Positions 5,961 to 58,919 of a DNA stretch of 64,000 nucleotides are shown here, in pieces. Position numbers and translations under genes: made by a program. Every line of letters starts with the position of its first letter. The first letter of the stretch is position 1. Under the pieces are notes generated by a model. It did not search any database. It saw only the letters and a list, made by a program, of their open reading frames with translations, and was not told the origin of the DNA. The stretch is from an uncultured Acidimicrobiaceae bacterium (lineage in GTDB: Bacteria; Actinomycetota; Acidimicrobiia; Spongiisociales; UBA5794). The stretch lies in the NCBI GenBank assembly GCA_964579415.1, contig CAZOGW010000002.1, positions 14,612 through 78,611 on the forward strand, read 5' to 3'.

Positions 5961-7831
5961 GTGGCGGAAGACACCCTTACCAAGCCCATCGATCGCGAGA
6001 AGCTCGACCGGGTCGTAATTCGATTCGCCGGCGACTCCGGTGACGGCATGCAGCTCGCCGGGACCCGCTTCACCGACGCGTCCGCCCTGTTCGGCAACGA
6101 CCTGGCGACTCTCCCCAACTTCCCCGCCGAGATCCGGGCCCCCGCCGGCACGCTACCCGGCGTGTCGTCGTTCCAGGTCCACATCGCCGACTGGGACATC
6201 CTCACCCCGGGCGACGAGCCCGACGTGCTGGTCGCCATGAACCCGGCGGCCCTCAAGGCGAACCTGGGCGATCTGCGCAAGGGCGGGCTGCTCCTGGTGA
6301 ACAGCGACGCCTTCGACGAGCGCAACCTCACCAAGGCCGGGTTCACCGGCAACCCCCTCGAGGACGGATCGCTGGAGGGCTACCACGTGCTCACCGCCCC
6401 GATGGAGGAGCTGACCAAGCTGGCGGTCGCCACCACCGGCCTCACCGGGCGGGGAGTGCTCCGCTCCAAGAACTTCTTCGCCCTCGGCCTGGTGTCGTGG
6501 ATGTTCAACCGCCCCACCGACACGGTGTTCGCCTGGCTCGACGAGAAGTTCGGTCCCGACGACGCGGTGGCCAAGGGCAACGCCGCCGCCTTCCGCGCCG
6601 GCTACAACTTCGGCATCACCACCGAGGAGTTCCACCACACCTACGAGGTGGAACCGGCCCGGCTCCCCGCCGGCGAGTACACCAACGTCACCGGCAACCA
6701 GGCGCTGGCGTGGGGCCTCATCGCCGCCGCCTCCTCGGTCCGGTTGCCGCTGTTCTATGGCTCGTACCCGATCACCCCGGCGTCGGGCATCCTCGAGGAA
6801 CTGGCCCGCCACAAGAACTTCGGGGTTCGCACCCTGCAGGTGGAGGACGAGATCGCCGCCGTCGGCGTCGCTCTGGGATCGTCGTTCGCCGGCCACCTCG
6901 GTGTCACCGGCACCAGCGGTCCCGGGGTCGCCCTCAAGTCGGAGACGATCAGCCTGGCGTTCCAGACCGAGCTGCCGCTCATCGTGGTCGACGTCCAGCG
7001 CGCCGGACCGTCGACCGGCATGCCCACCAAGGTGGAACAGGCCGACCTGCTGCTGGCGCTCTACGGCCGGCATGGCGAGGCGCCGCTCCCCGTGATCGCG
7101 GTATCGTCACCCAGCGACGCCTTCGAGACCGCCATCGAGGCGGTCCGCATCGCCGTCAACTTCATGACCCCGGTGATCCTGCTCTCCGACGGCTACATCG
7201 CCAACAGCTCGGAGCCGTGGAGCCTCCCCGACGTGGAGGCGATCCCCGACCACTCGGTGGCTTTCGCCGCAGCGGTCGAGGGCAGCGAGTTCCTCCCCTA
7301 CCGGCGTGACCCCGAGACGCTGGCCCGCCCCTGGGCCGTCCCGGGGACACCGGGCCTGGAGCACCGTGTCGGCGGTCTCGAGCACGAGGACGGCACCGGC
7401 AACGTGTCGTACGAGCCGCTGAACCACGAGGCGATGACCATCGTGCGCGAGAACAAGATGCGGGCGGTGGCCCGTTCCCTGCCGCCGCTCGAAGTATGGG
7501 ACCCAGACGGAGACGCCGACCTGCTGGTGGTGGGCTGGGGTTCGACCTTCGGCGCCATCCGCGCCGGCGTGCGTAACACCGCCAAGGCGGGCTACAGCGC
7601 CGCCCACCTGCACCTGCGCCACCTGTGCCCCCTGCCCGACGACCTGGGCGACGTCCTGGCCCGCTACGACCAGGTGCTGGTGCCCGAGCTGAATCGAGGT
7701 CAGCTGGTCAAAGTGCTGCGGGCGGAGTACCTGGTTCCCGCCATCGGCTACGGGAAGGTCCAGGGGCTGCCCTTCAAGGCGGCCGAGATCAGCCGCAAGA
7801 TCATGGAGCTCATCGACCACAAGGACGCACG

Positions 7832-7835
<4 letters not shown>
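5961..7835 (+). CDS. korA: 2-oxoglutarate/2-oxoacid:ferredoxin oxidoreductase subunit alpha (KorA-type fused alpha/gamma)
   Basis: Length (624 aa), N-terminus RFAGDSGDGMQLAG, the POR catalytic domain, and a 4-nt ATGA overlap with a TPP-binding beta subunit gene. Confidence 0.85.
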
Positions 7836-8839
<1,004 letters not shown>

Positions 8840-9848: not shown

Positions 9849-9972
9849 CCTCGGCCCCGAGCGGCCTCCTTGCCGAAACACCGGACAGCACGGATCCGTG
9901 TGCCGGATCAGGGTTGGGGTTGCTTTCCAGCACCGGTACGGTGTCCATACCGATCGGGAGGACGATCGAAGC

Positions 9973-11154
9973 ATGGATGTCCCCAAGGTGACAGCACGAA
10001 GCCGGACGCCGCGACACCTGCGGAGCCCCGTCGTGGCGGTGGGGCTGACGCTGGTCCTGGTGACGGCGATGTCGCTGGTGCGGGTGGCGCCGACGTTGGC
10101 GGCCGACTCGATCGCCACCCCGGACAGCGCCGGCGCATCCATCTCGCCGGCAGGCCGCGCTGCGCCGCCGCCGACCTGCAACGGCGTACCGGCAACGATC
10201 CTGGGCACGTCCGACAGCGAGTGGATCATCGGCACACCCGGCGACGATGTGATCCATGCCGGGGCAGGCGACGACTTCGTTTCCGGCGGAGGCGGCGACG
10301 ACATCATCTGCGGGGGCGCCGGCAACGACAACCTCCAGGGCGGCGAAGGTGAGGACGAGCTCCACGGTGGGGCCGGCAGCGACATCCTCCGAGGCGGCCC
10401 CGGCGCCGACAAACTGTGGGGCGGCGCCGGCGACGACAACATGTGGGGTCACCAGGACGACGACAGCATGTGGGGCGGCGCCGGCAACGACAACCTCCGA
10501 GGCGGGACCGGGGACAACCAGATCCACGGCGGTTCCGGCAACGACACCCTCAACAGTGGCTGGGGCAACGACGTGCTCTGGGGCGATTCCGGTAATGACC
10601 TCCTCAACGGCGGCGGCGGCAACGATTCCCTCCACGGCCAGGCGGGTGCCGACAGGCTCATCGGAGGCTCCGGCGACGACACACTCAGCGGAGGCGCCGG
10701 CGACGACAAGCTGTGGGGCCGCTCCGGAGACGACACCCTCAGCGGTGGCGCCGGTAACGACCTGCTCTACGGCGAGGAGGACACCGACACGCTCGACGGC
10801 GGGCGCGGTGACGACAAGCTGCGGGGCGGGCCAGGCAATGACGACCTCCGTGGCGGCATCGGCAACGACAAGCTGTGGGGTGATTCCGGCAACGACGAGC
10901 TCCGGGGCGGCAAGGGCAACGACATCCTCAGAGGCGGTACCGGGCACGACAAGCTGTGGGGCGGCGCCGGCAACGACACCCTCAACGGCTTCGCCGGCAA
11001 TGATCAGCTCTACGGAGAACCCGGCAACGACACCCTCAACGGCGGCGGCGACGACGACCGGCTTCGGGGAGGCCCGGGCAGGGACATCTGCAACGGCAAC
11101 CACGGCATCGACACCGCCGACAGCACCTGCGAGACGAAGACCGGCGTCCCCTGA
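9973..11154 (+). CDS. Secreted RTX (hemolysin-type Ca2+-binding nonapeptide) beta-roll repeat protein with no other recognised domain
   Basis: Good SD (gggagga) 13 nt upstream of the ATG and a Sec-type signal peptide (RHLRSPVVAVGLTLVLVTAMSLVRVAPTLAADS). About 30 GGxGxDxLx repeats, a CxxxxATIxGTxxDxxI N-cap and a C-terminal CNGNHGIDTADSTCETKTGVP cap. Confidence 0.85.
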   Translation: MDVPKVTARSRTPRHLRSPVVAVGLTLVLVTAMSLVRVAPTLAADSIATPDSAGASISPAGRAAPPPTCNGVPATILGTSDSEWIIGTPGDDVIHAGAGDDFVSGGGGDDIICGGAGNDNLQGGEGEDELHGGAGSDILRGGPGADKLWGGAGDDNMWGHQDDDSMWGGAGNDNLRGGTGDNQIHGGSGNDTLNSGWGNDVLWGDSGNDLLNGGGGNDSLHGQAGADRLIGGSGDDTLSGGAGDDKLWGRSGDDTLSGGAGNDLLYGEEDTDTLDGGRGDDKLRGGPGNDDLRGGIGNDKLWGDSGNDELRGGKGNDILRGGTGHDKLWGGAGNDTLNGFAGNDQLYGEPGNDTLNGGGDDDRLRGGPGRDICNGNHGIDTADSTCETKTGVP

Positions 11155-11156
11155 CG

Positions 11157-11180
11157 TGGAGACGCCATAGACGTCTCCGC
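11157..11180. terminator. Possible bidirectional hairpin terminator between convergent genes
   Basis: GGAGACG-ccataga-CGTCTCC stem-loop sits between the stop of the RTX gene (+) and the stop of the LicD gene (-). No clear U-tract, as is usual for high-GC genomes. Confidence 0.4.
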
Positions 11181-11188
11181 CGGCAGGC

Positions 11189-13249
11189 TCAGCGGGCACC
11201 GCCGTTGTGCATGGCGAACGAACCGATCTCGACGCCCTGGCGGCGGGCGACTTCGTTGGCCTCGAGAAGAAGCCGGGCCTCCGAGGGCGCCAGATACGTG
11301 CTCTTGAGCACGTTCATGATCTGTTTGGACCGGTAGTACCGGAAGCCCGGGTTGGGTGTCCGCCAGTCCGGCCCGTAGGTGCCGGCGAGCAGGAGATCGG
11401 GGTCTCTCGGGACCAGGATCTCGGTGCCCAGCATCTCCCGGCGCTGCACCGGTAGGTAATCGGCCGGGGTGGCAGGGATGGCGTCGTAACCCCAGGCGCG
11501 CCCGTCACGGAACCAGATCGGGTACACGTCGATGTCGATGTCGCCGATCCACACCTTGAACAGGCCGCCGCCGTGGCGGGTGGTCACGTCGAGCCCGGCC
11601 CGCAGCACCGTGTCCACCACCTGGAGAGCCTGCGCCTTGACCTGGACCGGGTCGGTGCAGGCGGTGAGGTATCCCACGTCGAGATCGTCGTCGCCGGGAA
11701 TGAACCGACCGTCCCGATGGCAACCCAGCAGTGTCCCGTACAGCACGAAGAGCTCGACCTCGAGCTCCGTCGCGAACACCTCGCGGACGGCCGTGTAGGC
11801 CCCGAGCAGCTCCTCGGGGGAACGGCCCACCGAGTCCGGCGACACCAGGGCGCCCTTCTTGGTGAACAGCTCACCACGGTCGAGCCGGTCGAACAGGAGA
11901 CCGTCGCCGTGGGGAACGGACACGGTGAGTTCGACCCCACCGAGATCGGCTGCCAGCGGTGCAGGCCCGGCCGTCACCGAGATACGAGAGGAGGCGGGGA
12001 AGGTGGCCAGCGCAGAGTGGCGCACGGTGAACGTGAAGGCGGGGTGCGAGAACTGCCGGTTGAGATCGACCTGCTTGATGGGCCGCCCGTCGACGGCCAC
12101 GGTGACGGTGGGCACCGATCGATCGGCGGCCCGGCCACGGATCCGGAGACCGAGGTGGGTGACGTCCACGGAGAACTCACCTGCGGGGTCGCGGTCGATG
12201 CCGACGCCCCCGGCGGCGGGCAGGACGTCCACGGCCAGAGACGGCTCGACTCGATCGGGGGAACCGATGCGGCACCGGCAGTAGGCGCGGCGGAACTCCC
12301 ACTCCAGGGAGGCGAAGTGCGTCCAAGGTTCGTCGATCGCCGCCAGAACGCCCAGCGCGGTGTCGTAGACCTCCACCGCCTCGGCGAAGCGCCCGAGATG
12401 CTCCAGGGCCTCCCCGTGATGGAACAGCCAGCTCGGCGGAGCCGGACGGCGTCGCAGGGTGATCGCAAGCGGCCAGCGCCGCACCGCCGCCCGCCAGTCG
12501 CGACGGTCGCTGGCGACCCGAGCCGATGCGGCGTGGATGACGCTGGAACGGGGATAGACCTCCCAGCCGGCCTGCACCGCCGCCTCGGCACCCTCCAGGT
12601 CACCCTGTTTGCGCAGGGCTTCGGCCAGGTCGGAATACGCACCCGAGGGACCCGTACCGAACGCCTGCAGGGCGGCGTCGAGCATCTCAGCCGCCTCGGG
12701 ATACGATCCGCCGGCGGCGAACGCCCTTCCCGCCCTCCACATGGTGGTGGGATGCGACGTGAGCCGGGCCCGGCGCCGGTACGCCTCGGCGGCGACGTCC
12801 CAGTCCCCGTGCACCGTCGCCGCGCCGCCGAGACGACGCAGCAGGGAAGGACTTCCGGCGAGGGCGAAGGCGCGGTCGATCTCCGCCGACGACGCCTCGA
12901 CCCGGGCGAGGTGGGCGTGGGCGCGGGCGAGCTCGTAGTGCCACACCGGGTCGCCGCGGCCGGTTCGCTCCAGTGACAGGCGCCACGCTTCAGCCGCCTC
13001 TTCCCACCTTCCGGAGGCCGCGGCCCATCGTGCCTCGCAGATCGAACCGAAGGCCGACGGGGCGGCGAAACGCCCCAACCGGTAGGACTGGGCTTCCGCC
13101 CTCCCGGTGACGGAGCGGAGCCGCCGGCCCGGGGCGGAGCGGCGGAAGACGTCACGGGCGACTGCGGTGAATCCGTGGCGGCGAGCCAGCATGGAGCGCA
13201 GGCGGCGGTCCAGCGGGATGCGAAGAATCTCTGGGTCGGCCATCGCCAT
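11189..13249 (-). CDS. TPR-repeat N-terminal domain fused to a LicD-family (LicD/fukutin-type) phosphotransferase domain
   Basis: The C-terminal half carries LFVLYGTLLGCHRDGRFIPGDDDLDVGY...GGLFKVWIGDIDIDVYP (LicD nucleotidyltransferase-fold DxD motifs). The N-terminal approximately 400 aa are Ala/Arg-rich helical repeats (TPR-like). Start chosen at MAMADPEIL; the ORF is open upstream to 13303. Confidence 0.75.
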   Translation of the reverse strand: MAMADPEILRIPLDRRLRSMLARRHGFTAVARDVFRRSAPGRRLRSVTGRAEAQSYRLGRFAAPSAFGSICEARWAAASGRWEEAAEAWRLSLERTGRGDPVWHYELARAHAHLARVEASSAEIDRAFALAGSPSLLRRLGGAATVHGDWDVAAEAYRRRARLTSHPTTMWRAGRAFAAGGSYPEAAEMLDAALQAFGTGPSGAYSDLAEALRKQGDLEGAEAAVQAGWEVYPRSSVIHAASARVASDRRDWRAAVRRWPLAITLRRRPAPPSWLFHHGEALEHLGRFAEAVEVYDTALGVLAAIDEPWTHFASLEWEFRRAYCRCRIGSPDRVEPSLAVDVLPAAGGVGIDRDPAGEFSVDVTHLGLRIRGRAADRSVPTVTVAVDGRPIKQVDLNRQFSHPAFTFTVRHSALATFPASSRISVTAGPAPLAADLGGVELTVSVPHGDGLLFDRLDRGELFTKKGALVSPDSVGRSPEELLGAYTAVREVFATELEVELFVLYGTLLGCHRDGRFIPGDDDLDVGYLTACTDPVQVKAQALQVVDTVLRAGLDVTTRHGGGLFKVWIGDIDIDVYPIWFRDGRAWGYDAIPATPADYLPVQRREMLGTEILVPRDPDLLLAGTYGPDWRTPNPGFRYYRSKQIMNVLKSTYLAPSEARLLLEANEVARRQGVEIGSFAMHNGGAR

Positions 13250-13410
13250 TTTCCGAATCCCCGTCCGTTCCCGGTAGGCCCCACCGCCCGTCGATGGCCG
13301 CATCCTATCGACGGGCCGTTCCGCGGTCGAGGCTCACACGCGCCACCGGCGAACCCGCTCATCCTCCGGCGACCCCGCCCGCAGGCAGGTGCCGGCGCCG
13401 ACCATGGCGC

Positions 13411-14472
13411 CTACCGGGGAAGGCGGCTCTGATAGAAGCGGCGGACCTCATCGGTGGGCCAGCGGAAGCGGCGCGCCACCTGCGGAGCCAGGGCGACGGC
13501 GGCGGCGGTGGGCGCGGCGTCGGCGAGGGCATGGCGGATGCCGGTTCCGAGAGCTTTGTGGTCGCCGGGCAGCACCCAGGTGACGGCGTCGCCGGCGTCG
13601 AGCATGACGCGGCTGCCGGGCAGGTCGCTGGCGACCACGGGGACACCCGCCGCCAGGTACTCGTAGAGCTTGGTGGGTTGGGAGTGGCGGTAGTTGGGAA
13701 GGTCCCGCAGCGGGACCACCGCCACCGCGTGGCGGGCCACCAGGGGCAGGGCCTGGTCGTGGGCGAGGAACCCGGTCATGTGCAGGTCCACACCGGAGTC
13801 CTGCGCCTGGGACTCGAGATGCAGGCGCAGGTCGGCCGAGCAACGGCCGATGAGGGTGAGGCGCGGGGGCGGCGACAGGTCGGCCACGGCGGCGACGAGG
13901 ACGTCGGCTCCGCGGTCGCGGGTGATGTCGCCCAGGTACACGACGCCATCTCGCTGGGCTGCGGGTACCACCGGGATCTGGGGGCCGGTGAGCAGGTTGG
14001 GGAACACCGGGTGGGGGCGGCGGAAGAACCGCCGGTATCCCTCCTCGGCCAGTGTCACCTCACCGGTGCGCTCGGCGAGGCGGAGCAGCCAGCGGGCCAC
14101 GGTGGCGGCGACCGGCCTGAGCGGGCGCGGGACGACCTGTTTGTGAGCCATCTGCGATGCCAGGTTCTCGTGGAGGTCGAACACCACCCGCCGCCTCAGC
14201 AGGCCCGCCAGGATCGTCGCCGGCAGCAGTTCCGGGTCGTGGACCGACGCCACGTCGTAGTCGCCGGCGAGTATCCGCCACGAAGCCCGCAGCGAGCGGG
14301 AGAGCCGCCCCCCGGGAAGCAGTTCCACGGTGATCCCCTGCGACGATTCCGGGCCCGGCGCCCGCACCGCGTAGCGGACGTCGGCGACGGTACGCAGCGA
14401 CTCGATCAGCTTGAGGCGGATGCGGGGGTCGTCGGGCGGGTGGACCGAGGTGACGACCAGGATGCGTTTCAC
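13411..14472 (-). CDS. GT4-family (GT-B) glycosyltransferase
   Basis: The C-terminal E-x7-E region (KLYEYLAAGVPVVASDLPGSRVML). A GTG start at 14472 avoids overlap with the dehydrogenase; a longer in-frame extension to 14589 is unlikely because it lies inside the upstream gene. Confidence 0.7.
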   Translation of the reverse strand: MKRILVVTSVHPPDDPRIRLKLIESLRTVADVRYAVRAPGPESSQGITVELLPGGRLSRSLRASWRILAGDYDVASVHDPELLPATILAGLLRRRVVFDLHENLASQMAHKQVVPRPLRPVAATVARWLLRLAERTGEVTLAEEGYRRFFRRPHPVFPNLLTGPQIPVVPAAQRDGVVYLGDITRDRGADVLVAAVADLSPPPRLTLIGRCSADLRLHLESQAQDSGVDLHMTGFLAHDQALPLVARHAVAVVPLRDLPNYRHSQPTKLYEYLAAGVPVVASDLPGSRVMLDAGDAVTWVLPGDHKALGTGIRHALADAAPTAAAVALAPQVARRFRWPTDEVRRFYQSRLPR

Positions 14473-14479
14473 CGGAGGC

Positions 14480-15772
14480 TCATAAGGCGAAGACGTTGTC
14501 CCGGTCGAGGCGGTTGCGTCGATAGGCGCCGCGGGTGTCGAGCACGGTGGGGACCGCATCGGCGATGGCCCCGAGATCGAGCGAGGCATGATCGGTGAGG
14601 ATCACCGCCAGCTGGTACCCGCCGAGGGCATCCCCGCCGGCGGGGGTGAAGCCGTGGGCGGCGATGCGCTCTTCACCCACCAGCGGATCGAGGACCCCGA
14701 TCTCGGCCCCGCGGTCCGCCAGCAGCCGCAGCACGTCGATCGACGCCGATTCGCGGTCGTCGGCGACGTTGGGTTTGTAGGCGATCCCGACGCCGAGTAT
14801 CCGGGTGCCGGCGATCGGTAGGCGACGCTCGTTGAGCAGCGCGGCGACGCGTTCGACGGTGTAGGTGGGCATCGCCTTGTTCACCTGCTCGGCGAGGTCG
14901 ATGAACCTGGTGGCGACGTTGGCCTCCTTGGCCCGCCATGCCAGGTACTGCGGGTCGAGCGGTATGCAGTGCCCGCCGACTCCGGGGCCCGGATAGAACG
15001 CCTGGAAGCCGAAAGGCTTGGTGGCGGCCGCGTCGACCACCTCCCAGATGTCGATGTCCAGCTCGTGGGCCAGTTGCGCCATCTCGTTGATCAGCGCGAT
15101 GTTGACGGAGCGGTAGGTGTTCTCCAGGAGCTTGGCCATCTCGGCGATGCGCGCCGACGACACCGGATGCACCGAGGACACGACGCGGCGATAGGCGGCT
15201 GCGGCCACCTCGGTGGAGACGGGAGAAACGCCGCCGACCACCTTGGGTATGTCCCCCGTAGAGATGTCCCGACCCGGGTCGACCCGCTCCGGCGAGAAGG
15301 CGACGAACACGTCCTCGTCAAGGACCAGCCCGCCGGAGGTGGCTGCCTCCACCATCACCTCCTCGGTGGTCCCCGGGTATGTCGTCGACTCGAGCGACAC
15401 CAGTGTTCCCGGCTTCACCACGGCGGCGACGGTCTCCGCGGCCGAGTGGATGTAGGAGAGGTCGGGTTCGCGGTGGCGGCCCAGCGGGCTGGGGACGCAG
15501 ACGAAGATCGCGTCCGCTGCAGTGAGCACGGCAGGGTGGGTGGACACGGTCAGCCCTGCGTCGAGGGCGTCGCGCAGCGTAGCCCCGGGCACGTCGCCGA
15601 TCGTCGAGCGCCCCGAGGCCAGCCGCTCCACATGCTCCTCGGACACGTCGAAACCGAGGACGCCCAACCCCTTCTGTGTCATGCCGACCGCCAGCGGCAA
15701 TCCGACATAGCCGAGACCGATCACCCCGGCTGTCCAGGGCTCCTCGGCGAAGAATCGGGCGCGATCGTGCAT
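14480..15772 (-). CDS. UDP-glucose/GDP-mannose dehydrogenase family nucleotide-sugar 6-dehydrogenase
   Basis: N-terminal Rossmann motif VIGLGYVGLPLAV and catalytic-Cys region GGHCIPLDP; 430 aa. Confidence 0.85.
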   Translation of the reverse strand: MHDRARFFAEEPWTAGVIGLGYVGLPLAVGMTQKGLGVLGFDVSEEHVERLASGRSTIGDVPGATLRDALDAGLTVSTHPAVLTAADAIFVCVPSPLGRHREPDLSYIHSAAETVAAVVKPGTLVSLESTTYPGTTEEVMVEAATSGGLVLDEDVFVAFSPERVDPGRDISTGDIPKVVGGVSPVSTEVAAAAYRRVVSSVHPVSSARIAEMAKLLENTYRSVNIALINEMAQLAHELDIDIWEVVDAAATKPFGFQAFYPGPGVGGHCIPLDPQYLAWRAKEANVATRFIDLAEQVNKAMPTYTVERVAALLNERRLPIAGTRILGVGIAYKPNVADDRESASIDVLRLLADRGAEIGVLDPLVGEERIAAHGFTPAGGDALGGYQLAVILTDHASLDLGAIADAVPTVLDTRGAYRRNRLDRDNVFAL

Positions 15773-15836
15773 TGAATATCCCTGGGTCGGGGTGCGGCGA
15801 TTCTAGGAGGAGCTTCCCGCCTACGACACGTCAGCC

Positions 15837-17963
15837 TCAGGGTCCGATGCGAGTGAGCGTTCGGTCACCGGGGTCGCCATCGACGAGGAGGATGTCGATC
15901 TGGTTGCTGCCACTCACCAGGCTGCTCGGAGGCAGGAGGACATCGAACAGCTCTGGGTCGTCCGCCGACTGGTGAGATCTCGTCACCGCCACCACGACCC
16001 CGTTGACGCCCACTGCGAGCAGCGCGGGATCCGACCCTACCTCTGGACGTTCCAGGGTGCCCCTGATCATGATGGGGAGGACCGCGGCGGAGATATCGAC
16101 GTCGGCGAGCGCCTGGGCGCCCTCCGCCGACGCCACCAGCGGAGAGGTTCCGGAGGGGAACTGGTCGACGGCGACACCGAGAAGGTCGGCGGTGCCGTCC
16201 GGGACCAGGTCGTACGGAGTGCCGCCACGGAAGATCTCCACCTTGCGAGCGGCGGCGGCCAGCTTCTCCTCGCCACCGGCCCCGAAGTCGACCGTCCCAC
16301 CGCCGACGATGGTGCTCCCGCTTCGCTCCGGCCGGTCTGTGGCGAGGAGGGATGTCCCCTCCACTTCCCAGGGGAGGGCGAGGCCGATGGCGTCCGCCAT
16401 GGTGGGAAGGATGTCGTGGATCTCGGCGCGGTAGTCGTCGATGCCGCCGGTTTCCTGACGAGGGGTCTTGATGAACAGCGGGATGGCGGCGATCTCGCCG
16501 ACGCTGTCCTCGGTGGCGGCGCGCCGGTTCTCCACGTCGGGGCGGAACACGATGCCGTGGTCGGCGGCGACTACGAGCAGGGTCTCGTCGTAGATACCGA
16601 GAGCCTCGAGCCGGGCGATGAGCCGCCCGATCAGGGTGTCGACGAACTGGACCTGGAGGAGGTGACGCTGGTACACCTGGTTCACCGGCCACGGGTCGCT
16701 GAGCCACGTGTTCCCGTCAGCGCCGAGTTGGGGTCGCGGCGGCACGAAACTCTGCCCGTCGGGCAGGTACTCCCAGCGGCCATGGGGGAGCATCACGTGG
16801 ATGAAGTCGAGCGTCGGACGCTCACCGCGCACATCGATGCCGTCGACGAACCCCTCGAACGTCGCCTTGCGACCGGCGCGGACCGCTTCGTTGAAGAGCG
16901 CCCGCACCGCGTCCGGATCCGAGAACCCGGCAACGGGTTCCGCCGGCACATCAGCGACCTCTGCGAACGCCCCCCATGCCTGGTCGATGGGGGGAAGGGA
17001 CCGGGTGAGGTCCTCGGGAAGGAGCATGTGGGCGGCCACAACCCGCAGATCCGCGGCCATGGCCCGCCATCTCTCCCGATTCGGGACAGGATCGAGCGGG
17101 GACTCCTCGCACACCAGCGGGGGGCACAAGGCGGTGATCGGCTCCATGGCGTCCACGTCGTAGACGCCGCCGAGAAGCGTGAACAGGTTGCGGGGATGGT
17201 CGAAGGCGGTGGGGGTCTCCTCCAGGTCGGGCGTATAGCCGGTCAGTGCCGCCGGGACAGCCCACTGCGTCAGCCGCGCCGTGGTGACGGCGTTGCGGTA
17301 CCAAGTGGCGTCGCCGGCAAGGCGGGCGAAGGCGGGATAGAGGTCGGACTGCAGCTCGCCCTCACCGTCGATGAGTGAGGCCACCGGGAACTCGTCGAAC
17401 ATCACCATCACGATGGGTGGGGGATCGGCGACGACTACGCCCGCCACGGCCACCGTGTCGGAGGCGGTGACGAGACGGGAGGCGGGAGAGAGAAAGAGAA
17501 AGAACGCCGGTACCGCCAGGACGGCCACCGACCCGAACACGAGCAGGGATCTCACCGGCTCGAACCTGAAGTAGGCCACCGCCGAGACCAGCCCGAGGAG
17601 GAACGCCAGCAACAGCTGCACCGGCCCCGGGAGCGAGCCCAGCGGAGTATGCCTCAGGATCACGGCGGCAAGCACCCCGGCGAGGACGGTGAGCACCGCT
17701 CCGTGAAACAGGCGGCCCGCCGTGCCGTTCAGCGAGTATGCACACAGGACGACGAGGCCCACCAGGATGGGCAGGAGGATCCCGGCGACAAGCGCCAGCA
17801 GGACCACCTCGGCTCGGGTGGCGTCAGCGGCCACGAAGAATTCGGGGTTGTCCCCCAGCAGGTTGAGGACGGGCTGCACAATGCCCAACACGAGCAAGGT
17901 GGCACAGGAGGTGATGATCTCGACAGGCCCGATGTCTCGCCCCGCCGGAGGGGCCTCAGCCAT
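15837..17963 (-). CDS. Polytopic membrane protein with an extracytoplasmic alkaline-phosphatase-superfamily (LtaS/sulfatase-like) domain
   Basis: Five or six N-terminal TM helices, then MVMFDEFPV...VVAADHGIVF, typical of LTA-synthase/phosphoethanolamine-transferase-like enzymes. Start taken at MAEAPPAG; an alternative ATG lies at 17990. Confidence 0.6.
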   Translation of the reverse strand: MAEAPPAGRDIGPVEIITSCATLLVLGIVQPVLNLLGDNPEFFVAADATRAEVVLLALVAGILLPILVGLVVLCAYSLNGTAGRLFHGAVLTVLAGVLAAVILRHTPLGSLPGPVQLLLAFLLGLVSAVAYFRFEPVRSLLVFGSVAVLAVPAFFLFLSPASRLVTASDTVAVAGVVVADPPPIVMVMFDEFPVASLIDGEGELQSDLYPAFARLAGDATWYRNAVTTARLTQWAVPAALTGYTPDLEETPTAFDHPRNLFTLLGGVYDVDAMEPITALCPPLVCEESPLDPVPNRERWRAMAADLRVVAAHMLLPEDLTRSLPPIDQAWGAFAEVADVPAEPVAGFSDPDAVRALFNEAVRAGRKATFEGFVDGIDVRGERPTLDFIHVMLPHGRWEYLPDGQSFVPPRPQLGADGNTWLSDPWPVNQVYQRHLLQVQFVDTLIGRLIARLEALGIYDETLLVVAADHGIVFRPDVENRRAATEDSVGEIAAIPLFIKTPRQETGGIDDYRAEIHDILPTMADAIGLALPWEVEGTSLLATDRPERSGSTIVGGGTVDFGAGGEEKLAAAARKVEIFRGGTPYDLVPDGTADLLGVAVDQFPSGTSPLVASAEGAQALADVDISAAVLPIMIRGTLERPEVGSDPALLAVGVNGVVVAVTRSHQSADDPELFDVLLPPSSLVSGSNQIDILLVDGDPGDRTLTRIGP

Positions 17964-20961
17964 ATGTGTTGCCGTCGCAGTCCATGGCACGACCAGCCAG
18001 CAGGGGGCGCAGCAGGTCGGAGATCTGCTGTGCCCGGTGAGCGAAGGTGTGGTGCCCGAGAACCAGATCGCGGCCCCGGCGGGCGCGTTCGGTCCGCGAC
18101 CAATCGTTGCCGAGGAGGTCGCCTACGAGGCCGGCGAGGTCGTCGGTGCCGGAGTAGGTGTCCACCACGCCGTCGAACAGAGCACCGAGACCCTCCACGA
18201 GGTCGGACACCACGACGGCGCCGCTGGCCAACGCGTCGAAGACCGCGGGGGCCACGATGCCGTGCTCCGCCAGCTCCGGCAAGTGACGGTGAACGACGAC
18301 GCCCGCCGAGGCGTACATCTCGGCGAGTCGGCCCTCCCAGGCCGGTGGCTCGACGTCCTCGACGGCGTCGCCGTCCTCGCTGGTGACCGGCTCTCCGGCG
18401 GCAGGCGCCTGCTCTGTGGATATCGAAGCCCCGGTGACGTAGACGACCTCTGCGGTAAGGCCCGGATCGGGCTCGGCGCTACCGAACTGCGTGCCGTCGG
18501 CGGCGAACGGCAGGTGGACGACAGGCACGCTCGCCTCCGCCGCCAGTCGCTCCGCGGCGCGTGCCGACGCGACACAGACAAGGTCGTACCTCTCACACTC
18601 CTGAGGGGTGACCTCGCCGGCGTGGCTGGTGATCCAGAGCACGTTGACCTGGGCGCTCTTGGGTGTGTACCGGACCGCTCCGCGGAGGTGGACGACCACG
18701 TCGACATCCTGCCGGTCTTCCCTGTCCCAGTCGGGGAGGAAGTGGATCTCACCGGCGAACCCCTGCGTTTCCATCGCCCGCAACAGACTGCGGGCGACGT
18801 GGTGGTCGTTCGAGCCGGCCGCCTCCTCAGCATCGATGGCGGCCACCTTGGCCGCCACGCGGGGCCGCTCCACCGTGGCCATGGCCAGCTCGGCGAACTC
18901 GCGGGCGCGCTGGCCGTAGGTGTGACGCTCGAGGACCGTGGCGCGCAGCTTGTCCGCCAGTTCGCGACGCGCCGCCTCGTCGCCGAGGTAGCGGTCGAGA
19001 AGTTCCCGCAGCTCCCGCCCGTCACGGTAGGTGGGTAACAGCCCTCCGAACAGCTCCGCGGATCCGATCGGGTTGTTGGACACGACGAGGGTGCCGCAGG
19101 CGAGGGCATCGAAGACCCTGCTGTTGACGAACCCGTGCGGGAGGGTGTGGTGGGCGGTGTCGTCGAGCAGAATGTCGACCGACCGGTACACGTCCGGCAG
19201 GAGTTCGTAGGGAAGGTGCCCTCGCCAGTAGCGGAGCGCCAGCGGTTCCTCCCGCCAGTTCTTGCCGAAGAGGAGGAATCGCTCCCCGGTACGGACGTCG
19301 AGGTCGCCCAGGACGCTCCGACCGAAGCCCCAGTTGTTGCCGGTGAACGCGTAGTCGGCACGAAACGTAACCGAAGCCGCTCCGGGCTGGAAACGCTCCG
19401 GGTTCGTGGCGAGGGGTAGCACCGGGGGCTCACGCAGGGCGAACCTTGCCAGTGCCTCGGCGGCGAGGTGGCTCGACGCGACCACCTGGTCGTAGGCGTC
19501 GAACCATGGGTGAGACATCCAGCGCTCCACCCAGTTACGCACCCAGGCGATGGTTACAGCTCCTGTCGGTGCTCGCCTTACGTCGAACGAGTCGAGCAAC
19601 CCGATGACGACGTCCACGTCGTCGGGCAACTCGTACCAGCGGTGCCCGCGCCGCTCGGCGTACACGACCTCCCAGCCCTGGGCGGCGAAAGCGTCGCCGA
19701 GTTCGTGGGCCGTGTACCAGTCGCCCCAGCCCTTGGTGACATCGTCCTCGGTGATTGTGATGGCGACCTTGGGGGGCGAGCCGCCGGCCCACACACCCTG
19801 CCCGCCGAGGCGGGCCCTCCTCACCGAGCGGGACACCAGGGGTCCCCACGTCTCGGCATACTGTCGCCAGTTGCCCATGTGGTTGATGCGGGCTACATCC
19901 CGGGCGAGGCCGCGCCTGGTAGAAGACTCGGCGTGGAACAGCACCGCCTCTCCGGCCAGGGCGATGCGGCCGTGGCGCCGCAGCTTGAGACAGAGGTCCA
20001 GGTCCTCGCACCCGTACACGTAGCCCGGAGTGAATCCTCCCACCGCCTCGAAGCCGCTCCGGGTCACCAGGAGTGCCGCCCCGGTGGCCGCCGCCACCTC
20101 GATCGTCTCAACGAGTGCCGGGTCGGTGGGGTCGGACCATTCGATGTTGGTGGCGTGAGGGGCTCCCTCGCGGAAACCGAAGCGGATCCCGCGGTGTTGA
20201 ACGGTGCAGGCGGTTCCTCCCTGGCCGGTTTCACGATGCACCATGAGCGCCCCCACGGCCACCCATCCCCCGCCGCCGCCGAGGGTGGCCACCATCGCTC
20301 CCAGCCAGTCGTCGGTGATCGGCTCGACGTCGTTGTTGAGGAACAGGAGCAGGTCCCCCCCTGCCAGTTCCGCCGCCTGGTTGTTGCCCTCGGAGAACGA
20401 AGCGTTCTCCTGGTTCCTCACCACTCGCAGCGGGAAACTCCAGTCGCTACCGAGGACATCGGCGGTGTCGTCACCGGACGCGTTGTCCACGACGACGACC
20501 TCAAAGGAGCGGTACCGGGTGGCATCGAGCGCCGGGAGCAGCCGTCGCAGGTGGTGGGCACCGTCGCGGGTGAGGATGATGATGGTCACCAGCGGGCCTG
20601 ACACCGGGTGGCGCGCCGGGCGCAACTCGGCGATCCGCCCGGCCACGTCCTCCCGGGACTTCCTGGCCGGGACCGCTCTTGTCATCGCGGGCGCGGGGAC
20701 CGGATCGGCGGCAACGGGCTTCTTCCGCCCTCGCGCCAGATCAAAGAGGGGACGGAGCGGGCGGGTCAGTGCGAGCGACAGCCGTACGATGCGCCGCCCG
20801 GCAAGACGCTCGTAGGAGCGCTGCGCCGCCTCGGCGACGCGCTCCGCCGACCGGGCCTGCGCCGCCAGGTCGGCGAGCTCCTCCTTCAGTCTGATGTTCT
20901 CGCGCTGCAGCGCCTCCGGGGGCGGCGTAGCACCGGTCGGCAGGGGGTGATCGTCGGGCAT
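17956..20961 (-). CDS. Giant multidomain glycosyltransferase: N-terminal coiled coil, a GT2 domain, then two GT-B (GT4-like) domains
   Basis: GT2 domain: IIILTRDGAHHLRRLLPAL...FEVVVVDNASGDDT...LLFLNNDVEP. GT4-like domain: HTLPHGFVNSRVFDALACGTLVVSNN...LLDRYL. The coiled coil ends in the RRIVRLSLALTRPLRPLFDLARG motif. Confidence 0.75.
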   Translation of the reverse strand: MPDDHPLPTGATPPPEALQRENIRLKEELADLAAQARSAERVAEAAQRSYERLAGRRIVRLSLALTRPLRPLFDLARGRKKPVAADPVPAPAMTRAVPARKSREDVAGRIAELRPARHPVSGPLVTIIILTRDGAHHLRRLLPALDATRYRSFEVVVVDNASGDDTADVLGSDWSFPLRVVRNQENASFSEGNNQAAELAGGDLLLFLNNDVEPITDDWLGAMVATLGGGGGWVAVGALMVHRETGQGGTACTVQHRGIRFGFREGAPHATNIEWSDPTDPALVETIEVAAATGAALLVTRSGFEAVGGFTPGYVYGCEDLDLCLKLRRHGRIALAGEAVLFHAESSTRRGLARDVARINHMGNWRQYAETWGPLVSRSVRRARLGGQGVWAGGSPPKVAITITEDDVTKGWGDWYTAHELGDAFAAQGWEVVYAERRGHRWYELPDDVDVVIGLLDSFDVRRAPTGAVTIAWVRNWVERWMSHPWFDAYDQVVASSHLAAEALARFALREPPVLPLATNPERFQPGAASVTFRADYAFTGNNWGFGRSVLGDLDVRTGERFLLFGKNWREEPLALRYWRGHLPYELLPDVYRSVDILLDDTAHHTLPHGFVNSRVFDALACGTLVVSNNPIGSAELFGGLLPTYRDGRELRELLDRYLGDEAARRELADKLRATVLERHTYGQRAREFAELAMATVERPRVAAKVAAIDAEEAAGSNDHHVARSLLRAMETQGFAGEIHFLPDWDREDRQDVDVVVHLRGAVRYTPKSAQVNVLWITSHAGEVTPQECERYDLVCVASARAAERLAAEASVPVVHLPFAADGTQFGSAEPDPGLTAEVVYVTGASISTEQAPAAGEPVTSEDGDAVEDVEPPAWEGRLAEMYASAGVVVHRHLPELAEHGIVAPAVFDALASGAVVVSDLVEGLGALFDGVVDTYSGTDDLAGLVGDLLGNDWSRTERARRGRDLVLGHHTFAHRAQQISDLLRPLLAGRAMDCDGNTYG

Positions 20962-21029
20962 GCCGGGGAGTCTAAGTGGGCCGGAGCGACCGGCCCATCG
21001 CCACGGTGTGCCGTGTCGGGCCGATCACA

Positions 21030-21100
21030 CCTACGGTCGAGCGCTCTTCGGCGAGGAATCGGGCGCCATCATGCGCGGGATATCTCCATGGGACAGGACA
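21030..21100. other. Degenerate duplicate of the 5' end and leader of the nucleotide-sugar dehydrogenase gene (gene-start remnant)
   Basis: 21041-21090 (gctcttcggcgaggaatcgggcgccatcatgcgcgggatatctccatggg) aligns at about 80% to 15729-15780, which holds the ATG and first 11 codons of the dehydrogenase plus the upstream ccc[a]ggatat motif. The remnant reading frame terminates after 13 codons. Confidence 0.6.
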
Positions 21101-21123
21101 CGAATGAAGGGGCCACCACCGTG

Positions 21124-23520
21124 TCAGGGGATGCTCACCTTCACCTCGCATCTCGTCGCCGTGTCCGTGCCGGAGCCGCCGTGGCAGGTGTCGGTGTTGC
21201 CGCCTCCGCGGAGGTCGTCGGCGCCGCTGCCGCCGTACAGGGCGTCGGCGCCGGCTCCACCCCGGATCAGATCGGGACCGGCGTTCCCGTAGAGCGTGTC
21301 GTTCCCTGCCCCGCCGTCGACGGTGTCGCTGCCGTCGCCACCGCGCAGTATGTCGCCCCCGGCCTCCCCGTGAAGGGTGTCGTTACCCTTGCCTCCGTAC
21401 AGAAGGTCGTCGCCGGTGCCGCCGAGGATCAAGTCGTTCCCGGTGTTTCCCCAGAGGCGGTCATGCCCTCCCCCGCCGTGCAGGTAGTCGCTGTCGCTGC
21501 CGCCGCGCAACCGGTCGTCCCCTCCGGCACCACGGAGCGTGTCGCGACCTGTGCCGCCCCCCAGCTTGTCGTTCCCGGGACCCCCGTAGAGCAGGTCGGC
21601 GTCGGAGCCGCCGCTGATCTCGTCGTCGCCCCGCTGGCCGTAGAGCCGGTCGACCCCGCCCTCACCGTAGAGGCGGTCCTTGCCGGTGCCGCCGAGGATC
21701 AGGTCGTCGCCGACCCCGCCATGGATCGTGTCGGCTCCGCTCCCCCCGAAGACCACGTCGTTGCCGGGACCGGCGTAGACGCGGTCGTTGCCGGAGCCTC
21801 CGCAGATCACGTCGTTACCGCCGCGGCCGTGGATCACATCGTGACCCCGCCCCGCCCAGATGATGTCATTCCCCTTGGTGCCGTAGATGACGTCGTTGCC
21901 CGAGGTGCCCAGGATGGTGGCCCGCTCTCTGGTACACCACCACGCCTCGTTGTCGGCGGTGGCCGTATCGCACTTCCACCCGGCGGGGACGAACCACGAT
22001 GTCGGCGAGGCGCCAGGGATCGCCGTGTTGCCCAGGTACACGTCGAGGACGCCGTTGGTGCGGAGCAGGAACAGGTCGTCACGGCCGTCGCCGTCGAAGT
22101 CGTTGGCGAGGACGTCCGCCCAGGCGCCGGAGGCGGGCAGCGTCCTCGTCTCGTTGACTGTGCCATAGCCGTTGAGCAGGATGCGAACCTTGGCCCGGTC
22201 GATCGCATACAGGTCGGGCAGGTCGTCGACGTTGCGGTCGCCGAGGGTGAACTGCCACGAGCGAGTGTCGCCGAGCGGGGTTGCGGTGTCGGCGAGCTTG
22301 GACTTGTAGCCTCCCTTGCCGTTCCACACCTCGACCCGGGTGGCGGTCGCCGAACGGCGGATGACGAACAGGTCCTGCACGCCGTCGCGGTTGTGGTCTC
22401 CCAGCAGGTAGGCGGCGCCGGCCGAAGGCTTGACCGCGGTCGACAACTTCACGGTCTTCTTGAACTCCTTGGAGCGTAGAGCCACCTCCATCGCCACCGT
22501 GGAGCCTTTGCTGTCGATGAACCAGATGTCGGTGCGGCCGTGGCGCTCGTAGTCGGCGTAGGCGACCAGGCGACCACGCCGCGTCACCGCCGGCACCACG
22601 AACGACGAGGCGGCGCAGGCCCGGTGCAGTTGGTGGGTGCGGGAGAACTCCACCAGGAGGGAGGTGCCGGCGTCGCCCACCTCTACGACATCGGCGAGGC
22701 CGTTGCCGGTGAAGTCGGCCAACGCCTGCGGCTTGCCCGCCTCCGTGGGACCGATGGCGGCGACGTCGTAGGTGGCGGCGAGGGTGGTGAAGTTGGCCGG
22801 GCTGGTGGTGGGCGGGTACGGCTTGGGGACGGTGCCGTAACCCGGGGTGGCGTTGGGGCCCATCCAACTGAAGTGCATGGTGTCCTTGATGTCCATCCAG
22901 TCGCCGCCCCAGCAGAACCCGGCGTCGCGCCACGCCTGGACGAACCAGTCCGGCATGTCGGTGATCTTCGTGTTGTCGGAGCGGTAGGGGTTGGTGGTCC
23001 AGTTGATGTCGATGGTGGCGCCGAAGGTGTGGTTGGAGATGCTGAAGGAGCCACCCACCGTGCGCGGCACGTAGGTGGCGGTATCGCCGCTGCGGATGCG
23101 GTAAGGCTTACCGGGATTGGCGGCGGCAGCGGCGACGAGGTTGGCGCCTGCCTTCTGGAACGCCGGGAGCGCCCGCTCGTGGACCCTCACCACCTTGCCG
23201 CCGCTCAGCGGCACGGTCCAGTTGACCAGTTCGCTCGAGAGCTGGCCGATGGTGCGCCCGAAGAAGTCGCCGCGGTACCCGCGTATCCGGTCCGGCGACG
23301 ACAGCGGGCCGGAGCGGGTATGGAGCGGGTTCGACGTCGACGGGGGGCCGCAGCCCGCCGACTCGTTGAAGGAGGGGAACCCGCCACCTTCCCCGGCGAG
23401 TCCTTCCCCCAGCCCGTCGCCATGCGCCGGGTGATAACCCTCATGCTCGGGGGGGATCGGGTCGTCCGCAGGCTGGGACCAGGCCGGAGGCGCCGTCATC
23501 GTCACCAGGCCGAGCGCCAT
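21124..23520 (-). CDS. Secreted three-part protein: LAS/M15-like (VanY-type) D,D-peptidase domain, FG-GAP/VCBS repeats, then C-terminal RTX beta-roll
   Basis: Signal-peptide-like MALGLVTMTAPPAWSQP; the ORF is open further upstream, so the start is uncertain. Peptidase-like region SGDTATYVP...HTFGATIDINW...DTMHFSW. FG-GAP motifs (DFTGNGLADVV, GDHNRDGVQDLFVI, NDFDGDGRDDLFLL). About 25 GGxGxD repeats and a terminal CHGGSGTDTATRCEVKVSIP cap. Confidence 0.7.
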   Translation of the reverse strand: MALGLVTMTAPPAWSQPADDPIPPEHEGYHPAHGDGLGEGLAGEGGGFPSFNESAGCGPPSTSNPLHTRSGPLSSPDRIRGYRGDFFGRTIGQLSSELVNWTVPLSGGKVVRVHERALPAFQKAGANLVAAAAANPGKPYRIRSGDTATYVPRTVGGSFSISNHTFGATIDINWTTNPYRSDNTKITDMPDWFVQAWRDAGFCWGGDWMDIKDTMHFSWMGPNATPGYGTVPKPYPPTTSPANFTTLAATYDVAAIGPTEAGKPQALADFTGNGLADVVEVGDAGTSLLVEFSRTHQLHRACAASSFVVPAVTRRGRLVAYADYERHGRTDIWFIDSKGSTVAMEVALRSKEFKKTVKLSTAVKPSAGAAYLLGDHNRDGVQDLFVIRRSATATRVEVWNGKGGYKSKLADTATPLGDTRSWQFTLGDRNVDDLPDLYAIDRAKVRILLNGYGTVNETRTLPASGAWADVLANDFDGDGRDDLFLLRTNGVLDVYLGNTAIPGASPTSWFVPAGWKCDTATADNEAWWCTRERATILGTSGNDVIYGTKGNDIIWAGRGHDVIHGRGGNDVICGGSGNDRVYAGPGNDVVFGGSGADTIHGGVGDDLILGGTGKDRLYGEGGVDRLYGQRGDDEISGGSDADLLYGGPGNDKLGGGTGRDTLRGAGGDDRLRGGSDSDYLHGGGGHDRLWGNTGNDLILGGTGDDLLYGGKGNDTLHGEAGGDILRGGDGSDTVDGGAGNDTLYGNAGPDLIRGGAGADALYGGSGADDLRGGGNTDTCHGGSGTDTATRCEVKVSIP

Positions 23521-23720
23521 GGCAATCCCCACTACCCGCCGGCCACCACGGCGCAGTCCTTGATGAAGCTGTCGGCTCGTCACCCAGGCGAGGCTAACCC
23601 AGGTGGCGATATAGGCGACTTCCTCGCGGGCAGGCCCGTGCCCGGAAGCGGTTACTCCACGATGCCCTCCCCTGCCACTACAATCCACCCGCCGCCGCCG
23701 GGCCATCCCCCGGGAGAACG

Positions 23721-29208: not shown

Positions 29209-29466
29209 CGCCTGGCGAGCCGTGACCTCGGTCTCGAGCCGGTCGATGCGACCGAGGACGTCCGCGGTGGACTGCTTCACCACCGCGTCGCCCCTGAGAC
29301 GCTTCCATAGCTCGCTCACGTTACGCGCCTTCCCGTCACACACCGCGATCCGGTACCCGGCCGAAACCCGGCCATCGGTGTAAGACGGCACCTTAGGACG
29401 TACGCGGATCGCGGTGACCCTAAAATGCCGGTCGCTCTTCTTCCCCCACCAGCGAGGTGCCGGTTC

Positions 29467-32514: not shown

Positions 32515-32519
32515 CCCAC

Positions 32520-33707: not shown

Positions 33708-33709
33708 GG

Positions 33710-54466: not shown

Positions 54467-54526
54467 CGCCGAACCGTCCCTTCAAGTTGCGATCCCATGT
54501 GCGGGTCCTCCCGGAGCGCGATGCGG

Positions 54527-58860: not shown

Positions 58861-58919
58861 CGGTACTCTCCTCGACGACGCAGCGGGGAGGGGCTCGCTG
58901 CGACACGAAGGGGTCCCGC

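Follow-up and report, generated by a model that had tools for sequence, protein, structure and literature searches.

We describe here a gene interval from an uncultured Acidimicrobiaceae bacterium (NCBI GenBank assembly GCA_964579415.1, contig CAZOGW010000002.1), lying within a stretch of 64,000 nucleotides (positions 14,612 to 78,611 of the forward strand) that was analyzed as a whole and is called the window throughout. The window has a G+C content of about 70%, and its genes were called from third-position GC bias. Positions 11189–17990 of its minus strand hold four tightly spaced genes, encoding a protein with tetratricopeptide repeats (TPR) and a LicD-type domain, a GT4-family glycosyltransferase, an NDP-sugar dehydrogenase and a membrane protein of the alkaline phosphatase/sulfatase superfamily that resembles LtaS. 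An initial annotation had proposed the first and the last of these as the transferases that install a phosphonate head group. For the LicD-family protein this proposal gained support, from its motifs, an FKRP-like fold and its linkage to the phosphoenolpyruvate (PEP) mutase gene ppm, but the LtaS-like half of the proposal gained none.

The gene run and the phosphonate pathway of the window

The four genes are the last ones of a five-gene run on the minus strand (11189–20961), which is likely to be an operon because its genes either overlap or are separated by gaps of just 7–160 nt. An independent assembly of the same organism (locus L001) gave identical gene order and gene calls for the run. 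The first gene (17956–20961) encodes a protein of 1001 aa with, according to Pfam, a GT2 and two Glyco_trans_1_2 domains, and it overlaps the start of the gene for the LtaS-like enzyme (15837–17990, 717 aa), assigned using Pfam, alignment, structural model and Foldseek. The database call of the latter gene begins at 17963, probably its true start and exactly the end coordinate of the initially annotated interval. This pair of genes is kept in another locus (L083), where a homologue of the first protein (52% identity over 699 aa) adjoins an LtaS-like homologue. Downstream follow a dehydrogenase of the UDP-ManNAc/UDP-Glc dehydrogenase family (14480–15772; Pfam, and NCBIfam TIGR03026 at 373 bits, above its cut-off) and a GT4/GT1-family glycosyltransferase (13411–14589; Pfam and the L001 gene calls, with a database call of 353 aa). 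The last gene encodes the TPR-LicD protein as an open reading frame (ORF) of 704 aa (11189–13303), assigned from Pfam, the database protein, homologues and a model; its database call begins at 13249, the probable start, giving 686 aa, and the exact protein is present in the database. A scan of 10900–21300 for promoters and terminators gave nothing above chance.

The phosphonate genes lie on the same strand at higher coordinates, where frame analysis of 39.7–42.2 kb resolved three genes, encoding a cytidylyltransferase–PEP mutase fusion (CyT-Ppm), a phosphonopyruvate decarboxylase (Ppd) and an Fe-dependent alcohol dehydrogenase (Fe-ADH). The fusion (40856–42166) carries an HxGH motif as well as the PEP mutase motif EDKxxxxxNS, scores 415 bits with TIGR02320 (cut-off 320) and has a cytidylyltransferase domain that matches the solved structure of the Fom1 cytidylyltransferase (5x3d) at E 1.5e-67; it is predicted to form both phosphonopyruvate and CMP-HEP. 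Ppd (39723–40862) has the thiamine pyrophosphate (TPP) domains of Pfam and scores 436 bits with TIGR03297 (cut-off 312), so that the core of the pathway was found with its mutase motif, with equivalog-level model matches and with Ppd alongside. Fe-ADH (38572–39726) has the Pfam Fe-ADH domain and Phn_Fe-ADH as its best NCBIfam model, below cut-off; by homology it would be a PhpC-like phosphonoacetaldehyde reductase (for this role of PhpC, see PMC8942020) yielding 2-hydroxyethylphosphonate (HEP).

The CMP-phosphonate-forming cytidylyltransferase that the initial annotation had ascribed to the locus is thereby present, fused to the mutase and of the Fom1 type. It belongs to PF01467/TIGR00125 and not to PF12804 (MobA-like NTP_transf_3), the type of 'PntC', and is thus, as judged from its sequence, a functional analogue of PntC as a former of CMP-phosphonates from a different family. 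Because its domain matches the Fom1 cytidylyltransferase, described as forming CMP-HEP (Rice et al. 2019, PMC6697681), the locus very probably makes CMP-HEP. The donor enzyme of the window is the same CyT-Ppm fusion as in Fom1 of fosfomycin synthesis, but is found in a glycan locus with Stealth, ABC transporter and glycosyltransferase genes instead of in a small-molecule antibiotic cluster, and is not accompanied by a Fom3-type radical SAM methylase. The LicD gene lies about 27 kb and the LtaS-like gene about 22 kb from CyT-Ppm, all in one large glycan region, but neither is adjacent to it. A 2-oxoacid:ferredoxin oxidoreductase at the left edge of the window (5961–8839, plus strand) was also considered as Ppd and was ruled out, having POR, POR_N and TPP_enzyme_C domains while the true Ppd is encoded at 39723–40862; these TPP-enzyme genes are probably outside the phosphonate pathway.

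The TPR-LicD protein and its linkage to phosphonate genes

The 704-aa protein belongs to the LicD-family phosphotransferases, is soluble and also carries a TPR array and, in its middle, a beta-rich domain, in agreement with the initial description of a LicD-family enzyme fused to a TPR platform. The array (about residues 150–335, 12299–12856) was recognized by Pfam TPR_2, TPR_16, TPR_14 and TPR_19, with TPR families reaching E 1e-12, and by TPR matches in the PDB, a sequence search of which detected this part of the protein only. The catalytic domain (about residues 490–700, 11204–11836) holds LYGTLLGCHRDGRFIPGDDDLDVGY, IDIDVYPIWF and TYGPDWRTPNP. Its match to LicD PF04991 reached 24.7 bits against a cut-off of 22.6 and covered just 29 residues (515–543). 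Using the full-length protein as query gave 2 matches, with TPR words dominating the candidates, but the C-terminal 299 residues as query gave 24 homologues, 18 of which carry PF04991 in precomputed annotation. In an alignment of 21 sequences the motif LYGTLLGxxR..FIPGDDDxDxGY, a further Asp in the lDvxPvW strand and YGxxWxxP were invariant; the corresponding columns are Y117, G118, L120, L121, G122, R125, I130, G132, D133, D134, D135 and D137 within LYGTLLGCHRDGRFIPGDDDLDVGY, followed by D187 and by Y238, G239, W242 and P245. An AlphaFold model of the domain had a predicted local distance difference test (pLDDT) score of 88.8, and its top 13 Foldseek matches in the PDB were all FKRP (6kak, 6kal and 6kam, with Mg, CMP or CDP-ribitol) at E 2e-7 to 6e-6 and probability 1.00, with a TM-score of just about 0.4 over the query; other enzymes of the nucleotidyltransferase fold ranked below. 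The weak PF04991 match is therefore upheld by the annotation of the homologues, the invariant motifs and the FKRP-like fold. Hydropathy analysis of the protein revealed no transmembrane or other hydrophobic segment, which supports the earlier suggestion that it acts in the cytoplasm.

Characterized LicD members use CDP-choline or CDP-ribitol. The LicD phosphocholine transferases (S. pneumoniae LicD1 and LicD2, H. influenzae LicD; PF04991) have the same signature as the window protein (GTLLG..R..FIPxDDDxD, a third acidic residue and YG..W/M..P), and likewise decorate surface glycans on the cytoplasmic side, using a donor that a dedicated cytidylyltransferase activates to a cytidine nucleotide. 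They differ in that their donor is CDP-choline while that predicted for the window protein is CMP-HEP, in that their partner is LicC in place of a PF01467 enzyme of Fom1/TagD type, and in that the window protein has the additional N-terminal TPR array and beta-rich domain, with its Pfam similarity restricted to the N-terminal motif (the 24.7 bits given above). FKRP, which like fukutin is a CDP-ribitol:ribitol-5-phosphate transferase, gave the best structural match (E 2e-7 over about 180 aligned residues with 20% identity for 6kak, 6kal and 6kam); FKRP moves a phospho-alcohol from a CDP donor onto a glycan with release of CMP, and the chemistry proposed for the window enzyme would be alike. FKRP differs in residing in the eukaryotic Golgi, in having a stem domain and in its acceptor and biological context, and the TM-score is only about 0.4.

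Linkage to phosphonate genes was assessed by scanning 185,579 species, each represented by one genome, for just two LicD motifs, which gave 69 loci, and by tblastn of the window proteins against these loci, scoring ppm or ppd within 10 kb. Of these loci, 18 have a full CyT-Ppm (59–79% identity) within that distance, and a further 3 have Ppd. The ppm-linked hosts included Glycomyces sp. NRRL B-16210, G. paridis, Stackebrandtia albiflava, two Nonomuraea and Lipingzhangella, in addition to Nitriliruptoria, Micromonosporaceae, several Proteobacteria and Spirochaetes. For the LicD gene, the analysis of co-occurrence that had been suggested in the initial annotation thus came out in favor of the proposal: in the clade that includes the window protein, 21 of 52 loci were linked to ppm or ppd (11 of 21 when counting loci with full flanks) and 8 had a stand-alone PF01467 cytidylyltransferase only, whereas an outgroup LicD clade had no linked locus (0 of 16, and 0 of 13 with full flanks) and no stand-alone PF01467 cytidylyltransferase. 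Since ppm is present in about 5% of bacterial genomes (PMC8942020), to be compared with 40–52% of the loci of the clade, this linkage to the HEP pathway is far beyond chance.

The association was also seen in gene order. Five loci (L009, L010, L018, L022 and L023) have LicD, CyT-Ppm, Ppd and Fe-ADH in that order on one strand, with gaps of 90–240 bp, and in L018 the four genes are preceded by those for an ABC permease and ATPase. Context look-up gave two further cases, these being Glycomyces albus (L003), with the LicD homologue about 2 kb from genes for CyT-Ppm, Ppd, Fe-ADH and Stealth, and a JGI contig with the CyT-Ppm/Ppd/Fe-ADH pathway 5 kb from its LicD. The TPR region is kept as well in ppm-adjacent homologues (L010, L011 and L018), and the TPR-LicD gene directly follows ABC transporter genes in L002, L008 and L018.

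HEP-phosphonoglycans have been purified from two actinomycetes, Glycomyces sp. NRRL B-16210 and S. nassauensis, according to the citations of Yu 2014 in PMC8942020 and PMC13576164. The HEP-phosphonoglycan producers have homologous CyT-Ppm, Ppd and Fe-ADH genes, with CyT-Ppm at 73% identity, and in their family a LicD homologue lies 2–4 kb from the pathway in Glycomyces sp. NRRL B-16210 (L013), G. paridis (L015), G. albus (L003) and S. albiflava (L011). The window differs by its distance of about 27 kb and by lacking a large GT2+Glyphos_transf gene of the Glycomycetaceae. Glycans that bear HEP or 2-aminoethylphosphonate (AEP) are believed to represent around half of the phosphonate pathways of bacteria, and they make up a large part of the dissolved organic phosphorus in the sea (PMC8942020, PMC8931226).

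LicD-like phosphotransferases near pntC-ppm have been noted before, in Atopobium rimae, Olsenella uli and Treponema denticola (Rice et al. 2019, PMC6697681), and linking LicD to phosphonates is therefore not new in kind, having been given one sentence in that paper, where the steps after Ppm are said to 'remain enigmatic'. The logic of those loci is the same, a cytidylyl-activated phosphonate with a LicD-like neighbor, and the transferase step is likewise putative there; they concern AEP and a PF12804 (LicC-like) PntC, while the clade found here belongs to the HEP branch (Fe-ADH), goes together with the PF01467 Fom1 type and has TPR fusions. No characterized CMP-phosphonate:glycan transferase was found in the literature searched. 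What is new is that a TPR-LicD clade has been delimited which is associated with the HEP branch and with a Fom1-type cytidylyltransferase, and which is present in culturable producers of HEP-glycans. Because its members form operons with the CMP-HEP pathway and occur in such producers, the step of glycan attachment becomes directly testable, and the clade would serve as a genetic marker for producers of phosphonoglycans.

Three observations on these loci are given here in their own right. In L003 (G. albus GCA_054775695.1, 268400–288945) the genes for ppm, TPR-LicD and several sugar-modifying proteins are each broken up into at least two ORFs, probably owing to frameshift sequencing error and not to pseudogenization. 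Distant LicD homologues of Rhodobacteraceae (L006/L058, 10001–21000, and L007, 228–12017) lie beside a conserved set of genes for Cyclase, Lyase_1/ADSL-like, Ldh_2, ATP-grasp and MmgE/PrpD proteins, with a stand-alone CTP_transf_like gene in addition in L007; this gene set may be a different, uncharacterized pathway for a CMP-activated head group. Among the 61 proteins that neighbor ppm+LicD loci, 3 have Sulfotransfer_3 and 2 have Sulfotransfer_1, and these recurrent sulfotransferases hint at sulfated phosphonoglycans.

Proposed transfer of HEP by the LicD protein and alternative assignments

We consider it somewhat better than an even chance that the TPR-LicD protein is a CMP-HEP:glycan 2-hydroxyethylphosphonyl transferase. 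The domains, motifs, fold and gene linkage described above associate the protein with CMP-HEP rather than prove that it is used, and donor, acceptor and direction of the reaction are predictions. According to the proposed mechanism, HEP would be made and activated to CMP-HEP by the Fom1-type CyT-Ppm, Ppd and Fe-ADH (38572–42166), whereupon a glycan hydroxyl would attack the phosphonate phosphorus of CMP-HEP with release of CMP, in parallel to the chemistry of LicD with CDP-choline and of FKRP with CDP-ribitol. The product would be a phosphonate monoester, glycan-O-P(O)(O-)-CH2CH2OH, on a cytoplasmic lipid-linked glycan or teichoic-acid-like polymer. That polymer could then be exported through the ABC transporter encoded at 46769–48371 (minus strand), comprising an ATPase (46769–47539, by Pfam) and a permease (47529–48371, by Pfam and hydropathy), which we infer to be its export route. 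As the LicD gene directly follows ABC genes in three loci, the TPR array may serve to tether the enzyme to the machinery that assembles the polymer.

Several results weigh against this assignment. The Pfam LicD match of the window protein itself is marginal, and the window LicD gene lies about 27 kb from ppm, in another operon, together with the GT2, GT4, sugar dehydrogenase and LtaS-like genes. Seven of the 21 full-flank loci of the clade have neither ppm or ppd nor a cytidylyltransferase. In a rough neighbor-joining tree, made without support values, the window protein forms a group with L002 and L008 whose sister is the ppm-linked group of actinobacteria, and those two loci have no ppm and no cytidylyltransferase within 10 kb, their LicD genes instead lying between ABC transporter and Stealth genes. 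L008, an Ilumatobacter metagenome-assembled genome (MAG), holds the closest homologue (48% identity over 638 aa) in an operon of the order phosphoglycosyl transferase, GT2 and, further on, ABC permease, ABC ATPase, TPR/LicD, Stealth, GT2-like and TagF/Stealth, which is syntenic with the ABC/Stealth segment of the window. Finally, Glyphos_transf, the domain of TagF-like proteins, is the commonest neighbor family, with 9 of the 61 proteins of 13 ppm+LicD loci.

The distance and the other operon, together with the absence of ppm and of a cytidylyltransferase near the nearest homologue, would fit an alternative in which the TPR-LicD protein belongs to an independent glycan operon and uses a CDP donor, supplied by genes elsewhere in the genome, to transfer one of the conventional phospho-alcohols, namely phosphocholine, glycerol-phosphate or ribitol-phosphate. 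It would also agree with the donors of the characterized LicD members and with the best NCBIfam motif match of the protein, the CDP-choline enzyme Mf1. We find this alternative unlikely, however, when set against the linkage of 40–52% of the clade loci compared with the roughly 5% of genomes that have ppm (PMC8942020), the TPR-LicD architecture that is common to ppm-adjacent homologues, and the fact that the called genes of the window include no alternative CDP-alcohol pathway.

The donors of TagF-type enzymes, CDP-glycerol or CDP-ribitol, are closely analogous to CMP-HEP, and the window encodes two proteins with TagF-like domains. The first (42196–44964, minus strand) combines, by Pfam, such a domain at its N-terminus with a Stealth (CR1-4) hexose-1-phosphate transferase, and its gene ends 30 bp upstream of CyT-Ppm; a second Stealth-family protein is encoded at 45076–46785 on the same strand. 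The other, of 1029 aa (29425–32514, plus strand), joins a TagF-like (Glyphos_transf) domain to TPR, again by Pfam. The TagF-Stealth fusion is kept in G. albus, S. albiflava, Ca. Stackebrandtia excrementipullorum and an Ilumatobacter MAG, and its orthologues adjoin ppm in the first two. One of the two TagF-like domains could hence be the real CMP-HEP transferase or polymerase, with LicD adding another phospho-alcohol or acting elsewhere. This would be in line with the resemblance of the donors, the 30 bp to CyT-Ppm, the orthologues flanking ppm, the frequency of Glyphos_transf among neighbors of ppm+LicD loci, a GT2+Glyphos_transf protein of about 1180 aa that recurs in L004, L009, L011, L013 and L015, and the fact that the genes called in the window include no synthase dedicated to CDP-glycerol or CDP-ribitol. 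Still, we regard it as rather unlikely, as the Pfam matches of the two window domains are weak (E 0.0045 and 5.5e-7), as no TagF-like gene was detected within the flanks of four LicD–ppm operons that have CyT-Ppm, Ppd and Fe-ADH (L010, L018, L022 and L067), and as IspD-like cytidylyltransferases, held by two ppm+LicD loci, could feed ordinary CDP-alditols to TagF-like enzymes.

An extension of the assignment of HEP transfer to the LicD protein would combine both enzyme types, with the TPR-LicD clade and the TagF-like/Stealth enzymes building a 'phosphono-teichoic acid' in which HEP is placed in-chain or terminates chains, beyond being a pendant cap. We hold this to be quite improbable, as we do the course that it would take, whereby the free hydroxyl of HEP would be extended further or HEP would stop elongation before ABC export.

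The LtaS-like membrane enzyme and the remaining glycan locus

The LtaS-like protein matched Pfam Sulfatase PF00884 (E 1.4e-15) in the C-terminal half of its catalytic domain, and Phosphodiest matched too. Its model (pLDDT 87) has five long N-terminal helices (residues 22–47, 59–87, 89–112, 122–142 and 144–167, in agreement with hydropathy), an alpha/beta core and a C-terminal beta domain, and we infer that the catalytic domain faces outside. In 30 homologues D199, E200, D477 and H478 were invariant and T241 was present in at least 90%. Profile alignment put T241 at the nucleophile position of phosphonate monoester hydrolase (PMH), where a Cys is converted to formylglycine (FGly), and for that reason the enzyme is assigned a Thr nucleophile and not the function of a sulfatase; its sequence thus points to a transferase or phosphodiesterase with a Thr nucleophile, as in LtaS, EptA and NPP. 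A sulfatase function was rejected from the missing FGly motif, the protein having L-T-Q-W-A-V-P-A-A-L-T-G where sulfatases and PMH have C-x-P-S-R-x-x-x-L-T-G. PDB sequence matches were to PMH (best), to sulfatases and weakly to LtaP/LtaS. A role as PMH was likewise rejected, since PMH uses FGly and since ppm is absent from the 80 loci of the family.

The protein is not a close relative of LtaS. With the NCBIfam model LptchSynLtaSGpos it scored 18.7 bits (cut-off 970), PMH and sulfatases ranked above LtaS in the sequence profile, and in the Foldseek ranking S1 sulfatases and PMH came first, with LtaP in 27th and MCR-1 in 42nd place. It shares with LtaS/LtaP and EptA/MCR-1 the five-helix N-terminal bundle, the alkaline phosphatase-superfamily domain, the Thr nucleophile and the Asp/Glu and Asp-His metal ligands, but has the C-terminal beta domain in addition, and the usual neighbor of its family is a methyltransferase-like protein of about 450 aa. 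That partner, with a C-terminal SAM-methyltransferase-like domain, is encoded immediately upstream on the same strand in 31–36 of 80 loci (for example L122, 2704–4164), and it was not found in the window.

The family comprises at least 581 clusters at E<=1e-3, of which the best 120, at 35–47% full-length identity, come mostly from MAGs of Acidimicrobiia and other Actinomycetota, and it occurs in at least 533 metagenome stretches, outnumbering the LicD clade more than 20-fold. Its gene context was surveyed in the best 80 of these at least 533 metagenome loci (808 kb). For the LtaS-like gene, the proposed check of co-occurrence failed: the 80 loci contained no ppm, ppd, Fe-ADH, LicD or Stealth gene and no homologue of the window dehydrogenase or the window GT4. 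Conversely, tblastn found no homologue of the LtaS-like protein in the 69 LicD loci, and there was no Sulfatase family among the 61 neighbor proteins of ppm+LicD loci. The initial annotation had named homologues in genomes without ppm and ppd as an outcome that would speak against its proposal, and the context seen at these 80 loci comes close to that.

The LtaS-like enzyme is very probably unrelated to phosphonate installation. An architecture akin to LtaS and EptA, with five helices, an alkaline phosphatase-superfamily domain and a Thr nucleophile, and an operon shared with the LicD gene would have suited the earlier suggestion that it draws on a lipid-linked donor to add the phosphonate at the outer face. 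Considering the 0 of 80 loci, the LicD loci without a homologue, the abundance of the family, the score far below the LtaS cut-off and the called genes of the window, which include no CDP-alcohol phosphatidyltransferase or other maker of a lipid-linked phosphonate donor, we judge that route to be extremely improbable. By analogy with LtaS and EptA, and tentatively, the enzyme probably acts on the outer face, either on the head group of a membrane phospholipid or as a phosphodiesterase. Dropping the gene from the candidates saves effort.

As for the remainder of the window, nearly all genes between about 8.8 and 57 kb are for glycan biosynthesis, including a phosphoglycosyl transferase, glycosyltransferases, RmlA/C/D, methyltransferases, a sulfotransferase, NeuA/NeuB-like proteins, the two Stealth proteins and the ABC transporter. 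Nearest relatives of the window proteins are in Ilumatobacter and other MAGs of Acidimicrobiia, and neither the Rfam nor the tRNA scan of the window gave a match. The sulfotransferase-domain gene (27598–29202, minus strand; PF00685 at E 8.6e-6) is missed by simple filtering on ORFs and third-position GC because its ORF runs on antisense into the next gene. On the plus strand, 29425–34582 encode the TagF-like+TPR protein, next a fusion of a PseF/NeuA-like cytidylyltransferase with a KdsC-like HAD phosphatase, and lastly a NeuB-family synthase, constituting a second CMP-activated (nonulosonic acid) pathway within the same locus. RTX (HemolysinCabind) repeat proteins are scattered in the glycan locus (9898–11154, 21124–23706, 48634–49929 and 58743–60371), of which two are fusions with polysaccharide deacetylase domains and one is a fusion with an M15 peptidase and FG-GAP repeats. 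A fused CmcI-type/TylF-type double O-methyltransferase adjoins the RmlA/C/D genes (55242–57191, plus strand, and 52758–55075, minus strand), which suggests O-methylated deoxyhexoses in the polymer.

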